Shown piece by piece: positions 471-22,410 of a stretch of 24,000 bases of DNA. Origin of the DNA: Frankiaceae bacterium (lineage in GTDB: Bacteria; Actinomycetota; Actinomycetes; BP-191). Position 1 is the stretch's first letter. The number at the start of each line of letters is the position of its first letter. The position numbers and the translations under genes are program-made. Under the pieces are notes generated by a model. That model had not been told where the DNA came from, did no database searches, and saw only the letters and a program-made list of their open reading frames with translations. The DNA lies in assembly GCA_030840645.1 (NCBI GenBank), contig JAVEEC010000050.1:10846-34845 (forward strand), in the 5' to 3' direction.

Positions 471-678
471 GCCGTTCGGCCGCGCGAAGTTGCGCTCCGC
501 GGCTCTGTGGAACGGCGTGGGCGCGGGCCGATACGTAATGCGGGTTCAGCAGGTGAGCCCGCAGGGAGACGTCGATCCGCGCCGGGTATGCCGGTCACCT
601 GTCCTTCGGGACGCCGGGTGCGGGGAGTCAGTGGTGAGACCGCCCCTGAACGTGTTCACGACGTTTGGGTGGAGTCGC

Positions 679-8865: not shown

Positions 8866-10605
8866 CTAGCCCTTCGCGTTGACGGCGGCGAGCGCGTCGA
8901 CCAGGCCGTCCCCGTAGAAGCCGTTGTGCTCCTTGGTGCCGCGGCAGGTCGCCGTGTAGTCGGCGTTGCGGCCCGGGTAGGTGAACGTCGCGCTGCTCGG
9001 GCAGGCCTTCGGCGTCGCGCTGCCGCGCAGCAGCGCCGCGACCCGCGCGGGATCCATCCGCAGGGTGCCTGGATGCGCCGGGTCGGCCGTGCCGAACCTG
9101 CTCACGATCATCGCCGCCACGCCCGCCGCGTGCGGCGACGCCATCGACGTCCCGGTCAGGTAGCGGTAGTACGCGCACGTCGTGCCCTTGCAGTACTGCA
9201 CGACGTACGGCGTGCGCGGGCGGCCGTTCGGCCCGACCGAGCCGTCCGCCTTCGCCAGCGCGGCCGGCCAGGTCGACAGCGTCATGTACGACGGGTCGGG
9301 GCCCGAGCCGTCGGCGAGGTACGTGCTGCCGCCGGGCGCGGTCACGGTGATGTGGTTCAGGCCGTAGTCGGAGTAGTCCGCCTTGATGCCGTCGCGCGCC
9401 ACCGCGCTGATCTGGATGACGTGCGGCAGCTCGCTCGGCAGGACGAGGCAGGAGGCGTTGACCCGGCGCAGCCGCGCGGCGGTGTCGGGGAAGTCGGGGC
9501 TGGTCGTGTCCGTCCGCGGGGTGTCCAGGTCGAGGTGCTCGTTGCCGGCGGCGGCGACCAGCGTGACGCCCTTCGCGTACGCGTACTCCGTCGCCCGGCG
9601 CACACCCTCGATCAGGGCGCGCTGCTCGTAGCGTTCGTCGGCGGTGTCGTCGATGCCGTTCGGGCAGTTGAACAGCCACGGGTCGACGTAGTAGCTCATG
9701 TTCGCCACGTCGACGCCGATGTCCCCGGCGTACGTCAGCGCGTCGACCGTCGGCATCAGGAAGAACAGCCCCGAGTCCTGGCCCGCGCGCAGCCCGACGA
9801 GGCGGACGCCGGACGCGACGCCCGCCATGCCGAAGCCGTCGCCCGCCGCGCTCGCGACGGTGCCCGCGACGTGCGTGCCGTGGCCGTCGTCGTCCGCCGT
9901 CACCGGGTCGACGCAGGTCGGGGTCTCGCACGGGCCGTCCGCTCCCGGGTAGTCGGTGACGAAGTTCCGCGACAGGTCCTTGTCGTACGCCGCCGCCAGG
10001 TCCGGGTGCGTCCCGTCGACGCCGGTGTCGATGATCGCGACGAGGACGCCGCTCTTGCCGCCGTGCGCCTTGCGTGCCTGCGGCGCGTGGATCACGTCCA
10101 TGTCCCACTGGAGGTCGGCGAGCGGATCGGGGCCCGCGTTGCTCCGCCGGGACCCGACGCCCTGGGGTGCGTCGCGGTGTTTCTCGACCGCCGGCGGCAG
10201 GCCGACGGCACGGTTGGTGACGACGCCGTAGATCGCGGACTGCTTCCGCGCCCGGGCGACGAAGTCGCGGCCGGCCTTGACGGTCACGACGCCGACCTTG
10301 GCGTTCGCGTGGATGACCTCGCCGCCGGCCTGCGCGACGGCGACCTCGCCGGCGCCCATCGACACGCCCGCGACGTACACGACGTCGAACACCCGGTCCC
10401 GCGGCGTCGTCCCCACCGGCGTCGGCTTGGCCGAGGTGGGGGCCGGGGTCGGTGCGGTGGTCGTCGGCGCCGCGCTCGTGGGTGCGGCAGTGGTCGGCGC
10501 CGCGTGCGGCTTCGGGTCCTTTCGGTCGTGCCTGGCGACGGCCGCGCCGACGCCGGTGACGAGGACGGCCGCGGTGGCCAGGGCGACGACGCCGGAACGC
10601 TGCAT
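8866..10605 (-). CDS. Secreted/anchored S8 family serine peptidase
   Basis: ATG at 10605 gives MQRSGVVALATAAVLVTGVGAAVA, then a Pro/Thr linker and an I9-like propeptide. Triad motifs are IIDTGVDGTHPDL, DDDGHGTHVAGT and GTSMASPHAAGVAA. Confidence 0.85.
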   Translation of the reverse strand: MQRSGVVALATAAVLVTGVGAAVARHDRKDPKPHAAPTTAAPTSAAPTTTAPTPAPTSAKPTPVGTTPRDRVFDVVYVAGVSMGAGEVAVAQAGGEVIHANAKVGVVTVKAGRDFVARARKQSAIYGVVTNRAVGLPPAVEKHRDAPQGVGSRRSNAGPDPLADLQWDMDVIHAPQARKAHGGKSGVLVAIIDTGVDGTHPDLAAAYDKDLSRNFVTDYPGADGPCETPTCVDPVTADDDGHGTHVAGTVASAAGDGFGMAGVASGVRLVGLRAGQDSGLFFLMPTVDALTYAGDIGVDVANMSYYVDPWLFNCPNGIDDTADERYEQRALIEGVRRATEYAYAKGVTLVAAAGNEHLDLDTPRTDTTSPDFPDTAARLRRVNASCLVLPSELPHVIQISAVARDGIKADYSDYGLNHITVTAPGGSTYLADGSGPDPSYMTLSTWPAALAKADGSVGPNGRPRTPYVVQYCKGTTCAYYRYLTGTSMASPHAAGVAAMIVSRFGTADPAHPGTLRMDPARVAALLRGSATPKACPSSATFTYPGRNADYTATCRGTKEHNGFYGDGLVDALAAVNAKG

Positions 10606-10763: not shown

Positions 10764-10910
10764 ATGCGCCAGAAGACCGTGCGTCGCACAGCGGCGTTCG
10801 TGGCGCTGGCGGTGGTGCTGCTCACGCTCGGCGCCGCCGTGATGGGCGCGGCGCGCGCCGACGAGTGCGCGACGCCCGCCGCCCGGCTCTCGCTGCACCA
10901 GTCCTGCTGA
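10764..10910 (+). CDS. Small secreted peptide precursor (48 aa; not in the supplied ORF track)
   Basis: GAGGAG lies 8 nt upstream of the ATG. Translation is MRQKTVRRTAAFVALAVVLLTLGAAVMGAARA/DECATPAARLSLHQSC. The signal-peptide architecture (n-h-c with AxA) is clear. 45 of 48 codons end in G/C, as in real genes here. The predicted mature 16-mer has Cys at positions 3 and 16. Confidence 0.45.
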   Translation: MRQKTVRRTAAFVALAVVLLTLGAAVMGAARADECATPAARLSLHQSC

Positions 10911-15142: not shown

Positions 15143-15238
15143 GACTCGTCCCCAGAAAACTGTCACACCCGGCCTGTTCCATAGGGATCAGACCGACGAC
15201 CCGGGGTGTTGCAACCTCACGTGAGCAGGGAGCACGGC

Positions 15239-18076
15239 ATGACCGAGACGGCGAACGGCGCGACGGCCAAGACCTCGAAGAAGGCGGCCGGGCTGCGCCT
15301 GCAGCGCGTGTTCACGACCGAGGGCGTGCACCCCTACGACCAGGTCCTGTGGGAACGCCGCGACGTCGTCATGACCAACTGGCGCGACGGCTCGGTCAAC
15401 TTCGAGCAGCGCGGCGTGGAGTTCCCTGACTTCTGGTCGGTCAACGCCACCAACATCGTCACGACGAAGTACTTCCGCGGCGCCGTCGGCACCGAGGCGC
15501 GCGAGTGGTCGCTCAAGCAGGTGGTCGACCGGGTCGTCGACACCTACACCCAGGCCGGCGTCGCCAACGGCTACTTCGCCACCCCCGCGGACGCCGAGAT
15601 CTTCGAGCACGAGCTCAAGCACATGCTCGTGCACCAGATCTTCAGCTTCAACAGCCCCGTCTGGTTCAACGTCGGCACCACCGCCCCGCAGCAGGTCAGC
15701 GCCTGCTTCATCCTCTCGGTCGACGACCAGATGGACTCGATCCTCAACTGGTACAAGGAGGAGGGGATCATCTTCAAGGGCGGCTCCGGCGCCGGCCTCA
15801 ACCTCTCCCGGATCCGTTCCTCGAAGGAGCTGCTCTCCTCGGGCGGCACCGCGAGCGGTCCCGTGTCGTTCATGCGCGGCGCGGACGCCTCCGCCGGCAC
15901 CATCAAGTCCGGCGGCGCCACCCGCCGCGCCGCGAAGATGGTGATCCTCGACGTCGACCACCCCGACATCGAGGAGTTCATCGAGACGAAGGCGCGCGAG
16001 GAGGACAAGATCCGCGTCCTGCGCGACGGCGGGTTCGACATGGACCTCGGCGGCCGCGACATCGTCAGCGTGCAGTACCAGAACGCCAACAACTCGGTCC
16101 GCGTCACCGACGAGTTCATGCGCGCCGTGGAGGCGGGCACCGAGTTCGGCCTCAAGGCCCGCAAGACCGGCGAGGTCATCGAGACCGTCGACGCCAAGGC
16201 GCTGTACCGCAAGATCGCGACCGCCGCGTGGGAGTGCGCCGACCCCGGCATCCAGTACGACGACACGATCAACGACTGGCATACCTGCCCGGAGACCGGC
16301 CGCATCACCGCATCGAACCCGTGCTCCGAGTACATGCACCTCGACAACTCCTCCTGCAACCTTGCCTCCCTCAACCTGATGAAGTTCCTGCGCGAGGACG
16401 GCTCGTTCGACGCCAAGACGTTCGCCAAGGTGGTCGAGTACGTCATCACCGCGATGGACATCTCGATCTGCTTCGCCGACTTCCCGACCGAGAAGATCGG
16501 CGAGACCACCCGCGCCTACCGCCAGCTCGGCATCGGCTACGCCAACCTCGGCGCCCTGCTCATGGCCAACGGCCTGCCGTACGACTCCGACTCCGGCCGC
16601 GCGATGGCCGGCGCGATCACCTCGCTCATGCAGGCGACGGCGTACAAGCGCTCCGCCGAGCTGGCCGCGATCGTCGGCCCGTACGACGGCTACGCCCGCA
16701 ACGCCGACGCCCACCAGCGCGTCATCCGCAAGCACGCCGCCGCCAACGACGGCCTTCGGCCGTTCGGCGCCGACGACGCGCGGATCCTGCACGAGGCCAC
16801 CCGCGCGTGGCAGGAGTGCCAGAAGGCCGGCGTCGCGAACGGCTACCGCAACAGCCAGGCGTCGGTCATCGCCCCGACCGGCACCATCGGCCTGATGATG
16901 GACTGCGACACCACCGGCCTCGAGCCCGACCTCGCGCTGGTCAAGAACAAGAAGCTCGTCGGCGGCGCGTCCATGAAGATCGTCAACGGCACCGTTCCGG
17001 CCGCCTTGCGCAAGCTCGGCTACGACGAGGAGATCGTCGAGGCGATCGTCGAGTACGTCGCCGAGCACGGCCACGTCGTCGACGCGCCCGGCCTGCGCCC
17101 CGAGCACTACGCGGTTTTCGACTGCGCGATGGGGGAGCGGTCCATCTCCTGGATGGGCCACATCCGGATGATGGCCGCGATCCAGCCGTTCATCTCCGGC
17201 GCGCTGTCCAAGACCGTCAACCTCCCCGAGACCGCGACCGTCGAGGACATCGAGAAGGCGTACTTCGAGGGGTGGAAGCTCGGCCTCAAGGCGATCGCGG
17301 TCTACCGCAACAACTGCAAGGTCGGCCAGCCGCTGTCCGACATCAACGACACCAAGAAGGCCGCGGCCGCCCTTGCGGCGGCCGGGATGCCGGTCGACGC
17401 TGGCGAGATGCGGCCGATCCGCAAGCGCCTGCCGAAGAAGCGCCCGTCGCAGACGGTGTCGTTCTCCGTCGGTGGTGCCGAGGGGTACATGACCGCGGGC
17501 TCGTACCCCGACGACGGCCTCGGCGAAGTGTTCATCAAGATGTCGAAGCAGGGCTCGACCCTGGCCGGCGTGATGGACGCGTTCTCCGTCGCCATCTCCA
17601 TCGGTCTGCAGTACGGCGTGCCGCTGGAGGCGTTCGTCGCGAAGTTCACGAACATGCGCTTCGACCCGGCCGGCCTGACCGACGACCCCGACGTGCGGAT
17701 GGCCCAGTCCGTGATGGACTACATCTTCCGCCGCCTCGCGCTGGACTACCTGCCCGTGGAGAAGCGGGCGGAGCTCGGCATCTTCACCGCGGAGGAGCGC
17801 GCTGCGCAGGTCGCGTCGTCGTCATACGGGTCCGCGCCCGCGGACGCGGCGGCCGAGCTCGGCGACGTCGAGGGGCTCGCGCAGTCCGTTCCGGTCGAGC
17901 CGCAGCCCGCGGCGCCGGCGACCGCACCCGCGAACCGCGGTGGCGGCTCCGGCATCGAGGTCACGGCCCAGACCGCCCAGGACGCGCCGCTATGCATGAA
18001 CTGCGGCATCAAGATGCGTCCCGCGGGCTCCTGCTACGTCTGCGAGTCCTGCGGCAGCACCAGCGGTTGCAGTTAG
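15239..18076 (+). CDS. nrdJ: Adenosylcobalamin-dependent ribonucleoside-diphosphate reductase (class II)
   Basis: AGGGAG lies 7 nt upstream of the ATG. The 945-aa product has class II RNR motifs (TNIVTTKYFRG, SACFIL, ASNPCSEY, NSSCNLASLNL, APTGTIGL) and a C-terminal CxxC...CxxC tail (CMNCGIKMRPAGSCYVCESCG). Confidence 0.95.
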   Translation: MTETANGATAKTSKKAAGLRLQRVFTTEGVHPYDQVLWERRDVVMTNWRDGSVNFEQRGVEFPDFWSVNATNIVTTKYFRGAVGTEAREWSLKQVVDRVVDTYTQAGVANGYFATPADAEIFEHELKHMLVHQIFSFNSPVWFNVGTTAPQQVSACFILSVDDQMDSILNWYKEEGIIFKGGSGAGLNLSRIRSSKELLSSGGTASGPVSFMRGADASAGTIKSGGATRRAAKMVILDVDHPDIEEFIETKAREEDKIRVLRDGGFDMDLGGRDIVSVQYQNANNSVRVTDEFMRAVEAGTEFGLKARKTGEVIETVDAKALYRKIATAAWECADPGIQYDDTINDWHTCPETGRITASNPCSEYMHLDNSSCNLASLNLMKFLREDGSFDAKTFAKVVEYVITAMDISICFADFPTEKIGETTRAYRQLGIGYANLGALLMANGLPYDSDSGRAMAGAITSLMQATAYKRSAELAAIVGPYDGYARNADAHQRVIRKHAAANDGLRPFGADDARILHEATRAWQECQKAGVANGYRNSQASVIAPTGTIGLMMDCDTTGLEPDLALVKNKKLVGGASMKIVNGTVPAALRKLGYDEEIVEAIVEYVAEHGHVVDAPGLRPEHYAVFDCAMGERSISWMGHIRMMAAIQPFISGALSKTVNLPETATVEDIEKAYFEGWKLGLKAIAVYRNNCKVGQPLSDINDTKKAAAALAAAGMPVDAGEMRPIRKRLPKKRPSQTVSFSVGGAEGYMTAGSYPDDGLGEVFIKMSKQGSTLAGVMDAFSVAISIGLQYGVPLEAFVAKFTNMRFDPAGLTDDPDVRMAQSVMDYIFRRLALDYLPVEKRAELGIFTAEERAAQVASSSYGSAPADAAAELGDVEGLAQSVPVEPQPAAPATAPANRGGGSGIEVTAQTAQDAPLCMNCGIKMRPAGSCYVCESCGSTSGCS

Positions 18077-18111
18077 CGCTACGTCGCCTAACGCGGCTTA
18101 GTTCAACGAGG

Positions 18112-18117
18112 TATAAT
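18112..18117 (+). promoter_or_regulatory. Perfect TATAAT -10 hexamer at the left edge of the low-GC island
   Basis: ggTATAATtattc lies 37 nt upstream of the GTG at 18154. No good -35 is seen at 17-bp spacing. Confidence 0.3.
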
Positions 18118-18153
18118 TATTCTCTCAGCGTCTCAAACTCGAAGCGGGGGACC

Positions 18154-18771
18154 GTGGCTGACCTGCCGTATGTGATCAACACTGGAACACTCTCAAAGTT
18201 TTTCGACAGTATCCAGACCACAGGAGTGCCTGGCAAGGTTACAATTCAGTATCTTGGCTCCATAGGCTTCAAGAGTTCCAACGATCGGTATCTACTTCCA
18301 TTCTTGAAGGCGGTCGCATTCGTCGATACCAGCGGCACGCCTATTGACAATTGGAAGAATTATCGCCACACAGGTCAATCGAAGTCGGTGATGGCGCAGG
18401 CTGTTCGTACGGGCTGGGCGAAGTTGTTTGATCTATACCCGGACGCCCACCGCAAGGACGATGAAGCAATCCGAAACTGGATGCGCAGTCACTCACCTGG
18501 CGCCTCTCCTACCACGGTCGATCGATCTCTAAAGACTTTTCGGGCCGCGTGCTCCTTCGCAGATTTCGGGGCACCTGTCGAATCGGTAACCATTTCGACG
18601 CCTGATGTTACGGCTTTGACAACAGTGCCAACGCCAGCAGCTCCCGCACGAGTTGCACCTGAGGTTGTGATCAACATCCAACTCCAGATACCTGCAACCG
18701 ACGATCCGAACGTGTACGATCGCTTCTTCGCTGCGATGCGTAAGCACCTATATAGCGAGCCTGCGGAGTAG
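18154..18771 (+). CDS. Island gene A: DUF5343-like protein with PT-rich linker and short conserved-looking C-terminal module
   Basis: GTG follows GCGGGGG. N-terminal region is ADLPYVINTGTLSKFFDSIQTTGVPGKVTIQYLGSIGFKSSNDRYLLPFLKAVAFVDTSGTPIDNWKNY. From memory of DUF5343 starts (PY...l.k.l..i...g.P.k.....L...G......LkfLglvd..g.pT) this resembles that family, but it is unverified. The linker is TPDVTALTTVPTPAAPARVAPE and the tail is VVINIQLQIPATDDPNVYDRFFAAMRKHLY. Codon usage is A/T-rich. Only the last 618 nt of ORF 15505..18771 are coding. Confidence 0.7.
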   Translation: MADLPYVINTGTLSKFFDSIQTTGVPGKVTIQYLGSIGFKSSNDRYLLPFLKAVAFVDTSGTPIDNWKNYRHTGQSKSVMAQAVRTGWAKLFDLYPDAHRKDDEAIRNWMRSHSPGASPTTVDRSLKTFRAACSFADFGAPVESVTISTPDVTALTTVPTPAAPARVAPEVVINIQLQIPATDDPNVYDRFFAAMRKHLYSEPAE

Positions 18772-19307
18772 TGGACTCACATGTGGCGCGTTCTTGGCAG
18801 ATAGTTGTAGGTCGTTTCGGGAGAGAAGCTAACTCGATTCTGAGTAAAGCTGAAACTGCCCCATCGCGTATCATTACGCTTGATGATAGCTACGCTAAAC
18901 TCGCCAAACTTTCGCTCGCCCAGGACGAACTGCTGCGGCAGGCGTTGAGGTGTGTCGAGCATCAGCTTTATCGTGCAGCACACGTCATGGCGTGGTCGGC
19001 GCTAATGGATTTTCTTGAAGAAAAGTTGGCCTCGGATGGTTTGCGCGCAGTCGCGACGGCACGCCCAAAGTGGCCGACGCAGAACATCGAGGCGCTACGT
19101 GAGCAGGTCAACGAATTCCAGTTGATCGAGGTTACGCACGTGGTGGGCCTGTGCAGCAAGAATGAGGTCAAGGCGCTCCACGGATTACTTAACAGGCGAA
19201 ATGAGTGCGCCCATCCAAGCCCGTACTTCCCAAACTTGAACGAAGCACTCGGGTACGTTACCGAGGTAATGCAACGAATCAAGCACCTTCAACCAAAGTC
19301 AGTTTGA
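18771..19307 (+). CDS. Island gene B: HEPN-superfamily protein (RNxxxH motif), putative RNase toxin/effector
   Basis: The GTG shares its G with the TAG of gene A (TAGTG). The protein looks all-helical. LLNRRNECAHPS contains R143-N-E-C-A-H148 (19197-19214), the Rx4H HEPN signature with the typical Asn after Arg. It uses rare codons, including one TTA (19185-19187). An alternative GTG lies at 18783. Confidence 0.7.
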   Translation: MDSHVARSWQIVVGRFGREANSILSKAETAPSRIITLDDSYAKLAKLSLAQDELLRQALRCVEHQLYRAAHVMAWSALMDFLEEKLASDGLRAVATARPKWPTQNIEALREQVNEFQLIEVTHVVGLCSKNEVKALHGLLNRRNECAHPSPYFPNLNEALGYVTEVMQRIKHLQPKSV

Positions 19308-19350
19308 CTGAGCCGCCAACAGGATGTGCAGCGTGTCACGCCGCAGCCTC

Positions 19351-19818
19351 TCAGAAGAGCGTCCCGGCCTCCAGGTCAAGCAGGGCCCGCTTCGCCGCCA
19401 TACCGCCGCCGAACCCGGTCAACGACCCGTCCGCGCCGATGACCCGGTGGCACGGGACGACGATCGCGATCGGGTTCCGCCCGTTCGCCAGACCGACCGC
19501 GCGCGCCGCGCCCGCGTCGCCTACCCGCCGGGCGAGCTCGCCGTAGGAGACCGTGGTGCCGTACGGGATCAGCCGCAGCTGCTCCCACACAGCGCGCTGG
19601 AACGACGTCCCCACCGGCGCTAGCGCCACGGTGAACGACCGCCGCTCACCGGCGAAGTACTCGGCGAGCTGCTCGACAGCCGAGACCAGCACCGGGTCGT
19701 CGTCGGCGCGGTCGCCGGCGGCCGGGCCGGAGCCGAACCGCAGGCCGGTCAGGGCATCGCCTGCGGCGGTCAGGTGCAACGGACCGACGGGCGTCGGGTC
19801 GAGGACGGTCCAGGTCAT
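19351..19818 (-). CDS. ogt: Methylated-DNA--protein-cysteine methyltransferase
   Basis: ATG at 19818 (MTWTVLDPTPVGPL). Motifs are YGELARRVG..AARAVGLANGRNPIAIVVPCHRVIGADGSLTGFGGG, including the PCHRV active site. Its start overlaps the upstream stop (ATGA). Confidence 0.9.
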   Translation of the reverse strand: MTWTVLDPTPVGPLHLTAAGDALTGLRFGSGPAAGDRADDDPVLVSAVEQLAEYFAGERRSFTVALAPVGTSFQRAVWEQLRLIPYGTTVSYGELARRVGDAGAARAVGLANGRNPIAIVVPCHRVIGADGSLTGFGGGMAAKRALLDLEAGTLF

Positions 19819-21307: not shown

Positions 21308-22210
21308 TCAGCCTGCTGCGCGGAAGTCCTCGTACCGCTCGGCGAGCCCCGCGGCGTCGGGGTGGTTGTACCGGGACCGGGGCACGACGAGCCGGCCGCC
21401 GTCCATCTCCTGCAGGCCGTGGCGCAGCATCGGGCCGTCGACCTCGCGCAGGATGTCGGCGCGCACCTCGATGCCGAGGTCGGGGCGGACACCGACGATG
21501 TTCTGGTCGTACGCGGCGTGGTGGATCTTGCACAGCGCGAGGCCGTTCGGGACGACGGGCAGTCCCCGGGGGTGCGTGTCGCGCAGGATGTGCGCGGCGT
21601 CGAGCAGCTCCGGGTGGCGCAGCCGGCACATGGCGCAGGTGCCGTCGTACGCCCGCAGGACGAGGACGCGGAACTGCTCCTGGTGCAGCCGCGCCCGGGT
21701 CGTGCGCTCGACCCACCGGCGCCGGTCCTCGGTCAGGTGGTCCAGGTCCACCAGCAGCTGGCTCTCGTCGACGGCGACGGAGAACTCGTGGCGGGCGCGG
21801 TCCTCGGCGACGAGGTACACCGGCCAGATCGGCATGTACACGCCCGGCGCGACGCCGACGAAGTACGCCATCGGCACGCGCAGCTCCATGGCGCGGCGCA
21901 GCGCGCGGTTGTCGGCGTGGTCGGGGTCGGTGCCGCGGTACTTGTACCGGAGCAGGCCGTCCGGGCCGATGCCGTCCTCGTACGGTCGTGCCGCGCCCGG
22001 CGCCCGGAAGACGGTCGTGAACGAGAGCGCGGCGTCGAGGCCGGCAACGCGCCGGATGCCGGACTGGCCGATGACCTGGAACGTCCGGCCGTCGACCTCG
22101 AGCTTGTTCACGTCGGCCGAGCGGACGGTGCGGTCGACGCTGGTTCCGGCGAGGGCGTCCAGGCGCGCGAACAGCGTGCTGCGCAGCGCCGCGTCCCGGT
22201 CGCCGACCAT
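21308..22210 (-). CDS. SRA(YDG)-like domain + HNH nuclease (candidate modification-dependent, type IV-like restriction endonuclease)
   Basis: ATG at 22210 (MVGDRD). The N-terminal half reads GIRRVAGLDAALSFTTVF...YEDGIGPDGLLRYKYRGTDPDHADNRALRRAMELRVPMAYFVG...VYLV, following the SRA pattern (GI...a.Siv..g.Y.dD...l.Y.G.g......N.AL......PVrv). The C-terminus CAMCRLRHPELLDAAHILRD...NGLALCKIHHAAYD is an HNH motif. The upstream part of ORF 21308..22585 is non-coding. Confidence 0.65.
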   Translation of the reverse strand: MVGDRDAALRSTLFARLDALAGTSVDRTVRSADVNKLEVDGRTFQVIGQSGIRRVAGLDAALSFTTVFRAPGAARPYEDGIGPDGLLRYKYRGTDPDHADNRALRRAMELRVPMAYFVGVAPGVYMPIWPVYLVAEDRARHEFSVAVDESQLLVDLDHLTEDRRRWVERTTRARLHQEQFRVLVLRAYDGTCAMCRLRHPELLDAAHILRDTHPRGLPVVPNGLALCKIHHAAYDQNIVGVRPDLGIEVRADILREVDGPMLRHGLQEMDGGRLVVPRSRYNHPDAAGLAERYEDFRAAG

Positions 22211-22307
22211 GGCCACCGGACCGTTGTAGCAGCTGCGGGGTGTCCCGCGACGGCGCGAGCCCGGCGCGTCGCTCACGCGCTTCGCCACGAGCAGCCCCCA
22301 GAATGAA

Positions 22308-22342
22308 CGAGGCCCCTCGAGGTATGAGCTCGAGGGGCCTCG
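22308..22342 (-). terminator. Strong hairpin, candidate intrinsic terminator (minus strand)
   Basis: cgaggcccctcgag / gtatgag loop / ctcgaggggcctcg forms a perfect 14-bp GC-rich stem. On the minus strand it is followed by TTCATTCT. It lies about 350 nt downstream of the SWIM gene stop and about 100 nt upstream of the HNH start. Confidence 0.45.
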
Positions 22343-22410
22343 CCAGGTCCCGCTGCACCGGCGCCCGATCGCTCGGACACCGTGCGTCGCGGTACCAACC
22401 TCCGGTGCCT

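Follow-up and report, generated by a model that had tools for sequence, protein, structure and literature searches.

A two-gene DUF5343-HEPN cassette shared by bacteria and archaea as a candidate conflict module

In many toxin-antitoxin (TA), abortive-infection, and CRISPR-ancillary systems, HEPN RNases do the killing or arresting, and what is least understood and most variable about these systems is how the RNase is kept off and then switched on. Two described arrangements are close to the locus reported here. The first, HepT-MntA (type II/VII TA), consists of two small adjacent genes, and its toxic component is a HEPN protein with an Rx4-6H motif. The second, PDC-M34, is a two-family cassette (FAM_01148>>FAM_01657, count 97) among the 145 PDC candidates of PADLOC, all of them untested and predicted from their embedding in bacteriophage exclusion (BREX), DISARM, or restriction-modification (R-M) loci (bioRxiv 10.1101/2024.01.29.577857). 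Here, we describe a pair of genes from a Frankiaceae bacterium (assembly GCA_030840645.1, contig JAVEEC010000050.1), located in a 24,000-nucleotide stretch (positions 10,846 to 34,845 of the contig) that we refer to as the window and whose own numbering is used throughout. Gene A (18154..18771, + strand; GTG start at 18154, TAG stop at 18769-18771) encodes a DUF5343 protein of 205 amino acids (aa), and gene B (18771..19307, + strand) encodes a HEPN-fold protein of 178 aa when read from a GTG at 18771, or of 174 aa when read from a GTG at 18783. Taken together, the evidence makes it fairly probable that the two genes constitute a conflict module in which A acts as the sensor or regulator of the HEPN RNase B.

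One indication that A and B belong together is their co-occurrence in other genomes, a check that had been set beforehand in an earlier note on this DNA, which proposed the pair as a defense or TA system. A B-seeded pattern scan of one genome per GTDB species (185,579 species representatives) yielded 88 confirmed B loci, which, as the scan relied on sequence patterns, is a lower bound. Eighty of these were fetched and, together with the window's own contig (L001) and a related actinobacterial contig (L002), gave a set of 82 loci, four of which are cut at the start of B. Where upstream DNA is available (78 loci), B is in every case immediately preceded by a DUF5343 gene on the same strand. The reverse scan, in which metagenome contigs were searched with a 13-sequence alignment of A, gave 80 loci, 69 of them with B; eight have fewer than 90 nucleotides after A, and B is thus present in 69 of the 72 loci with room for it. 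Across 71 loci, the pairwise identities of A correlate with those of B (Pearson r = 0.73), and A, at a mean pairwise identity of 0.39 compared to 0.50 for B, is the faster-evolving member. The distribution is very patchy, spanning around 10 bacterial phyla (including Acidobacteriota, Chloroflexota, Planctomycetota, Actinomycetota, Pseudomonadota, Bacillota, and Thermodesulfobacteriota) and several archaeal lineages (including Archaeoglobi, Methanoregula, Methanoperedens, Methanomassiliicoccales, and Pacearchaeota). No conserved third gene was found around the pair in the B-seeded loci. In one gammaproteobacterial metagenome-assembled genome (L062), A is split into two frames (9349-9977 and 9929-10558) next to an intact B, which reflects either an assembly error or a tolerance of B without A.

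The two genes are also closely spaced. The earlier note had reported a one-base overlap, TAGTG (18769..18773, + strand), between the stop codon of A and the first possible start of B. Indeed, the reading frame of B is open from 18756 and its earliest start codon, GTG 18771, uses the final G of the TAG stop of A. The public gene call for the identical JGI contig, however, places the start of B at GTG 18783, leaving an 11-nucleotide gap after A, and the overlap therefore depends on the choice of start codon. In the closest relative, L002, a 178-aa B begins immediately past the stop codon of A. Among approximately 76 loci, the start candidates of B nearly all fall between ~17 nucleotides inside A and 14 nucleotides past its stop, and 4-nucleotide ATGA or GTGA overlaps are common. 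Since junctions are tight across these loci, close coupling of A and B is a property of the family rather than a chance feature of one genome; this broader part of the claim stands, while the single shared base holds for one of the two starts. A 1,088-aa open frame (15505-18771, + strand) crosses the upstream gene nrdJ off-frame and then runs in frame into A; it is an artifact of high GC content that could mislead open reading frame-based calling of the start of A.

A further argument for a joint function comes from natural fusions. In an exhaustive profile search with B against 1.84 billion cluster representatives (993 matches at an E value of ≤1e-3, 86 at ≤1e-30), the best 150 matches included at least 11 distinct fusions (clustered at 50% identity) of 239 to 335 aa, in which a DUF5343 domain lies N-terminal to a B-type HEPN. 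Pfam confirmed DUF5343 in all four fusions scanned (P0281, P0291, P0294, and P0306). Such "Rosetta-stone" proteins indicate that A and B function as a single unit. The linker and C-terminal tail that A carries in the split form (see below) are absent from all fusions found; seven fusions (P0281, P0291, P0306, P0354, P0376, P0379, and P0387) also lack the first 36 to 55 residues of B, and four (P0294, P0297, P0363, and P0337) retain full-length B. This pattern suggests that the tail of A, and perhaps the N-terminal helices of B, provide the noncovalent link in the split pair. The same HEPN core was also found behind other N-terminal domains, namely, DUF7669 (P0304) and an unknown domain (P0388 and P0389).

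HEPN proteins have been described as four-helix up-down bundles whose N-terminal half carries a conserved acidic residue, in helix 2, and whose second and third helices are separated by a variable insert. Their Rx4-6H motif, in which R is followed by a polar residue (N, D, or H), either closes helix 3 or opens the loop that leads to helix 4 (PMC3710099). The AlphaFold2 model of B (all-helical; predicted local distance difference test [pLDDT] score, 90.6) has this arrangement, with two N-terminal helices (residues 3-42) preceding a four-helix core (49-63, 67-89, 130-147, and 156-173) and a helical insert (92-124) between core helices 2 and 3. The predicted RNase active-site motif, R143-N144-E145-C146-A147-H148 (codons at 19197..19214, + strand), is invariant in 80 aligned homologues; R143 to A147 end helix 3, H148 begins the loop to helix 4, and N144 is the polar residue after R. 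D80 and E83, both inside helix 67-89 and invariant in the same alignment, account for the acidic position of helix 2, where the exact Ex3[KR] spacing is absent. The best Foldseek matches in the PDB are HEPN proteins: SsR10 (2q00), AF_0298 (2hsb), the HEPN domain of Csm6, and HepT toxins (5yep, 6m6w, 7bxo, and 7ae8), with probabilities of up to 1.0, a target-normalized template modeling score of 0.63, and E values of 0.07 to 1. The HEPN signature assigned to B from the letters alone has thus been borne out by conservation as well as by the fold check. On the strength of the model, we assign B to the HEPN fold, with its predicted RNase site intact, which would make it an RNase.

By sequence, B belongs to a large family of its own. 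A search of 5.8 billion proteins returned more than 1,140 relatives, and the 120 listed (161 to 204 aa, mostly 172 to 183 aa, with ~55 to 65% identity to B) all carry PF27235 ("AF_1680"), a newer Pfam family. In our local copy of Pfam, DUF4145 was the sole model to match B (E = 0.063, below the gathering threshold), and this marginal match recurred in 4 of 20 relatives. A weak match was found to phrog_27609 in PHROGs (unknown function; E = 2e-4). NCBIfam profiles gave nothing meaningful for B, PDB chains searched by sequence and by profile yielded no informative match, and PADLOC models run on B and 19 relatives gave scattered weak matches, with no system model matched.

Gene A was correctly recognized as DUF5343-like: it matches Pfam DUF5343 (PF17278) over residues 5 to 140 (E = 1.4e-37). 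It also matches the PADLOC model PDC-M34A (PDLC04589) from end to end (positions 5 to 207 of 208; E = 8.4e-42). An alignment of 97 homologues shows three parts: a conserved globular domain (residues ~1-135) with the motifs GFKSSNDR and YPDAHRKDDEALRN; a variable, low-complexity linker (~136-170) rich in Pro, Ala, and Thr; and a conserved C-terminal strand-helix tail (~171-200), VVINIQLQIPATDDPNVYDRFFAAMRKHLY, with the consensus VNINIQLQLPATxDxxxYDxFFAAMKKHLL. The AlphaFold2 model (mean pLDDT, 88.7) drops to 57 to 72 in the linker. No nucleotidyltransferase, ATPase, or nuclease match was obtained for A in Pfam, NCBIfam, PHROGs, or PADLOC, in agreement with the statement that A is no minimal nucleotidyltransferase (MNT); the identity of A as an MNT-type antitoxin was therefore rejected, the nucleotidyltransferase signature being absent. 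A further statement, that A lacks any recognizable helix-turn-helix, ATPase, or nuclease motif, holds for the latter two and is less certain for the first. Foldseek searches of the A model against the PDB and BFVD returned nothing above noise, searches of PDB chains by sequence and profile were uninformative, and no helix-turn-helix match appeared in structure or profile searches; the model, however, opens with three helices and a hairpin (residues 11-22, 31-36, 42-53, and 57-63) that could be a winged helix.

The three A-seeded loci that have room for B but lack it proved to carry a different gene overlapping the end of A. In two of these, the downstream gene encodes REase_DpnII-MboI (PF18742, E = 1.5e-47; PADLOC Aga_Helical-REase), and in the third, it encodes pP_pnuc_1 (PF18165, E = 1.3e-15; PADLOC Aga_Nuclease). 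The C-terminal tail of A is kept in front of both types of partner.

Related tails might occur elsewhere. Two distant B-like HEPN proteins found on plasmids (~27% identity; motif RNMAAHPS), one on Ochrobactrum plasmid pLM19O1 (L168, 3042-4408) and one on the Ralstonia solanacearum Po82 megaplasmid (L170, 2931-4393), are each preceded by an overlapping gene encoding ~205 to 240 aa. The N termini of these partner proteins (KIRFIMVEAEIADGDIGQITQAIQNALR and KVRIIEFELEGSDISLQESLKSIAAAL, respectively) resemble the strand-helix tail at the C terminus of A and are followed by a low-complexity linker and then a globular domain. Judged from this order of parts, the arrangement could be A in permuted form; neither partner protein is detected by the A profile. 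The tail-like peptides hint that the strand-helix peptide may be a general HEPN-docking element.

Our proposal is that A and B are a two-gene conflict module of the abortive-infection or toxin type that is complete in itself and spreads by horizontal transfer. The effector would be B, as a metal-independent HEPN endoribonuclease with R143, N144, and H148 as its active site, probably dimeric like other HEPN RNases. A would be its obligate partner, binding B and controlling it, either as a sensor or regulator or as a neutralizing antitoxin. If the genes are cotranscribed and their translation is coupled, A would be made alongside B, and the strand-helix tail on its flexible linker would be the probable docking interface, in which the N-terminal helices of B may take part. 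The RNase would then be released upon a trigger, for which the likeliest candidate is a phage infection perceived by the DUF5343 domain, and the resulting RNA cleavage would arrest the cell. We prefer the role of sensor or regulator to that of a labile antitoxin because of the fusions, the swapping of effectors, and, as weak evidence, the L062 locus with its broken A and intact B.

The labile antitoxin deserves consideration nonetheless, as part of a classical type II TA addiction module in which B would be a HEPN RNase of constitutive toxicity, set free by the degradation of A. In this explanation, the N-terminal domain of A binds an operator while the tail neutralizes B, and the role of the pair is stabilization of a genome region or a stress response rather than the sensing of phages. 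The antitoxin-first gene order, the overlapping junction, and the small gene sizes fit such a module, as do the layout of A (a folded domain joined by a disordered linker to a short C-terminal element that is conserved) and its faster evolution. Additionally, the pair is scattered among housekeeping genes, HEPN toxins are known from HepT-MntA, and HepT is among the fold matches of B. Multiple single-chain fusions, on the other hand, are hard to square with a release by differential degradation, and the association of the A family with DNases is a pattern more typical of sensor-effector immune modules. The frameshifted A of L062 also speaks against a labile antitoxin, albeit weakly, as it concerns a single metagenome-assembled genome. 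No DNA-binding fold match was found for A by Foldseek or profile searches. Finally, a tblastn search of A against 72,556 plasmids gave no match, and the same search with B gave only the distant HEPN cores described above. All in all, we regard an addiction module as rather unlikely.

The genomic setting of the cassette favors horizontal acquisition of the sensor-effector pair proposed here. In the window, A and B are the only genes in a low-GC island of 1.27 kb (18077..19350, no strand; delimited by GC profile and by GC content at third codon positions [GC3]), flanked on the left by nrdJ (starting at 15206 or 15239 and ending at 18076, + strand) and on the right by ogt (19351-19818, - strand). 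The GC content is 0.51 to 0.58 within the island and 0.68 to 0.78 in its flanks; for the cassette itself, it is 0.54, compared to 0.72 for the window, which is high-GC actinobacterial DNA, and GC3 is 0.57 to 0.60, compared to 0.97 for nrdJ. The island borders showed no convincing mobile-element scars, flanking direct or inverted repeats, tRNA, or terminator. The 77-nucleotide spacer separating nrdJ from A contains a TATAAT hexamer (18112..18117, + strand), read by eye from the sequence, which is a possible -10 element of a promoter of the cassette's own; a consensus promoter scan did not call it, a good -35 element being absent.

L002 carries the pair (9374-10537) in the same nrdJ-ogt site. 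Between the window and L002, identity is 93% for NrdJ, 75% for A, and 73% for B. Synonymous sites of A and B are saturated (proportion of synonymous differences [pS], 0.80 to 0.82), whereas pS is 0.23 to 0.37 for the flanking lexA, nrdR, nrdJ, ogt, and ada, in which the extreme GC3 of host genes limits pS. With a proportion of nonsynonymous differences (pN) of 0.17 to 0.20 at such pS values, both A and B are under purifying selection. Furthermore, both alleles keep their low GC3 amid genomes with a GC3 of ~97%. The two alleles are either far older than the split of their hosts or were acquired independently at the same site, and the comparison points to replacement of the cassette, separate insertions into one site, or a polymorphism maintained over a long time. 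In Nocardioides anomalus, the pair is located at an unrelated site. We also considered whether A and B might be a gene-calling artifact and ruled this out, as the pair is conserved and pN/pS is ~0.2 despite saturated synonymous sites.

Other features of the window stand apart from the cassette. A second variable spot lies ~2 kb away, where an HNH_2-like gene (21308-22210, - strand; a weak Pfam match) is missing from the equivalent position of L002. Just upstream of this gene, ARAGORN predicts a tRNA-Met (22288-22358, - strand), while a scan with Rfam gathering thresholds reports no tRNA. A full-length c-di-GMP-II-GAG riboswitch aptamer (RF03169) was found at 556-654 (+ strand), scoring 59.4 bits against a gathering threshold of 40.

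Because the window copy sits in a lexA-nrdR-nrdJ-ogt-ada region, we also considered that the pair, rather than being a conflict system, may have a housekeeping or regulatory part in RNA metabolism, perhaps in connection with nucleotide or DNA-damage metabolism. Ribonucleotide reductase genes of three classes adjoin the pair in separate loci: class II nrdJ in the window and L002, an NrdD gene, and a small-subunit gene. In L046 (1-1563), nrdJ lies 2.4 kb from the pair. By a rough estimate, such neighbors exceed chance expectation, which might be due to a hot spot of insertion or to a functional connection. The high conservation of B in bacteria and archaea and the many housekeeping genes among the neighbors would also suit this explanation. 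Nevertheless, it fits poorly with a distribution as patchy as that given above (88 confirmed loci, as a lower bound), with a foreign base composition and a site that varies in related genomes, and with synonymous sites that are saturated relative to those of the flanks. Moreover, the HEPN partner is exchangeable for DNases, and some copies are embedded in BREX loci. We therefore hold a housekeeping role to be very improbable.

With regard to defense genes nearby, the picture is divided. In a type 3 BREX locus of Desulforudis (L073), the gene order is BrxC, an OLD/GajA-like gene, PglXI, A, B, BrxHI, PglZ, and BrxA; L049 and L042 have the same neighbor families, and in L069, the gene immediately before the pair is a type IIG R-M gene. 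As to whether the pair sits in defense islands, these loci are such cases, while in most of the others, the immediate neighbors are not defense genes. The OLD/GajA-like ATPase-nuclease gene of L073 (4434-6500), embedded between BrxC and PglXI, and the A-B pair represent two accessory modules nested in one BREX locus. HEPN RNases have been described as backup effectors in BREX loci (PMC12839542), and three immediate neighbors of the pair encode N6/N4 methyltransferases. Even so, the possibility that the pair is an accessory or backup effector working only together with BREX or R-M, with no function alone, seems remote, given that, for all its position between PglXI and BrxHI in three loci and behind a type IIG gene in another, most copies, including that of the window (between nrdJ and ogt), have no BREX or R-M neighbor and no further conserved gene accompanies the pair, which moves as a unit.

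Several observations weigh against the conflict module with A as sensor or regulator, and they temper our confidence in it. First, the immediate neighbors of the pair are mostly housekeeping genes, with only a few percent being defense genes, and the three BREX-embedded loci share their neighbors and may represent a single transferred island. Second, phage records, IMG/VR contigs, and plasmids yielded no copy of the pair: tblastn searches of A and B against phage records gave no match, and a scan of the viral contigs of IMG/VR with A revealed no relative. Third, the assignment of B rests in part on Foldseek E values that are weak (0.07 or higher), and sequence profiles reach only marginal DUF4145 or HEPN_RiboL-PSP matches. 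Fourth, retention of the A tail beside non-HEPN partners runs contrary to a B-specific interface. Finally, with ~50% mean pairwise identity across domains, B is unusually conserved for a defense gene.

Should the proposed module be validated, it would represent a new HEPN control module and a compact (~1.15 kb) defense or toxin system common to bacteria and archaea, and a function would be assigned to two uncharacterized Pfam families, PF17278 and PF27235. What sets A apart is that the partner of a very conserved HEPN family is never alone, can be fused to the RNase, and also serves DNase effectors. The split form and the natural fusions offer a ready comparison for studying communication between sensor and nuclease. 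As a tentative generalization, DUF5343 might be a family of immune sensors or adaptors in bacteria and archaea that gates AF_1680-type HEPN proteins, pP_pnuc_1, and DpnII/MboI-like restriction endonucleases through a portable strand-helix docking peptide, with the HEPN pair as the dominant form and the fusions as derived ones.

With its adjacent, codirectional, small genes that are inherited together, the cassette resembles type II TA modules in general and HepT-MntA in particular. It differs from the latter in its DUF5343 partner, modeled as all-helical, which has no nucleotidyltransferase signature, so that neutralization by AMPylation is not expected. B, in turn, differs from HepT by two extra N-terminal helices and by its own Pfam family, PF27235. 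DUF4145, a recognized HEPN family (PMC3710099; Pfam clan CL0291), is another point of likeness, although the marginal match of B stays below the gathering threshold and B is classed in PF27235. Similarly, CARF-HEPN proteins of the Csm6/Csx1 type and HEC-08 (DUF3644-HEPN) place a HEPN RNase under an N-terminal noncatalytic domain, as the DUF5343 fusions do. The cassette, in contrast, has neither a CARF domain nor a zinc ribbon, its sensor is usually a separate polypeptide, and no CRISPR or cyclic-oligonucleotide genes were found near it; a CARF-HEPN identity was rejected on the absence of the CARF domain.

The likeness to PDC-M34 is closer on the side of A, given its end-to-end match to PDC-M34A and the BREX and R-M embedding of L073, L049, L042, and L069. 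PDC-M34B of the PADLOC model set used, however, matched neither B nor any of 19 relatives, even at E values of up to 10, and these models would consequently not call the locus PDC-M34. In the collection of papers searched, none mentions DUF5343, and no relevant paper turned up on PDC-M34, AF1680, PF27235, or PF17278. The suggestion in the earlier note that the pairing is not among named defense systems is accordingly correct as far as validated systems are concerned, although A was already cataloged as the candidate PDC-M34A. New in this cassette is the class of partner that accompanies its HEPN effector, the family of B being uncharacterized in recent Pfam. The last group to be compared, Argonaute-associated nucleases, is linked to the cassette by pP_pnuc_1 and the DpnII/MboI-like restriction endonuclease (Aga_Helical-REase), which in three metagenome loci take the place of B behind DUF5343. 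In contrast to Argonaute systems, neither the window nor the loci of the pair contain an Argonaute or PIWI gene; the three nuclease swaps nonetheless place DUF5343 in the partner pool of interchangeable conflict-system effectors.

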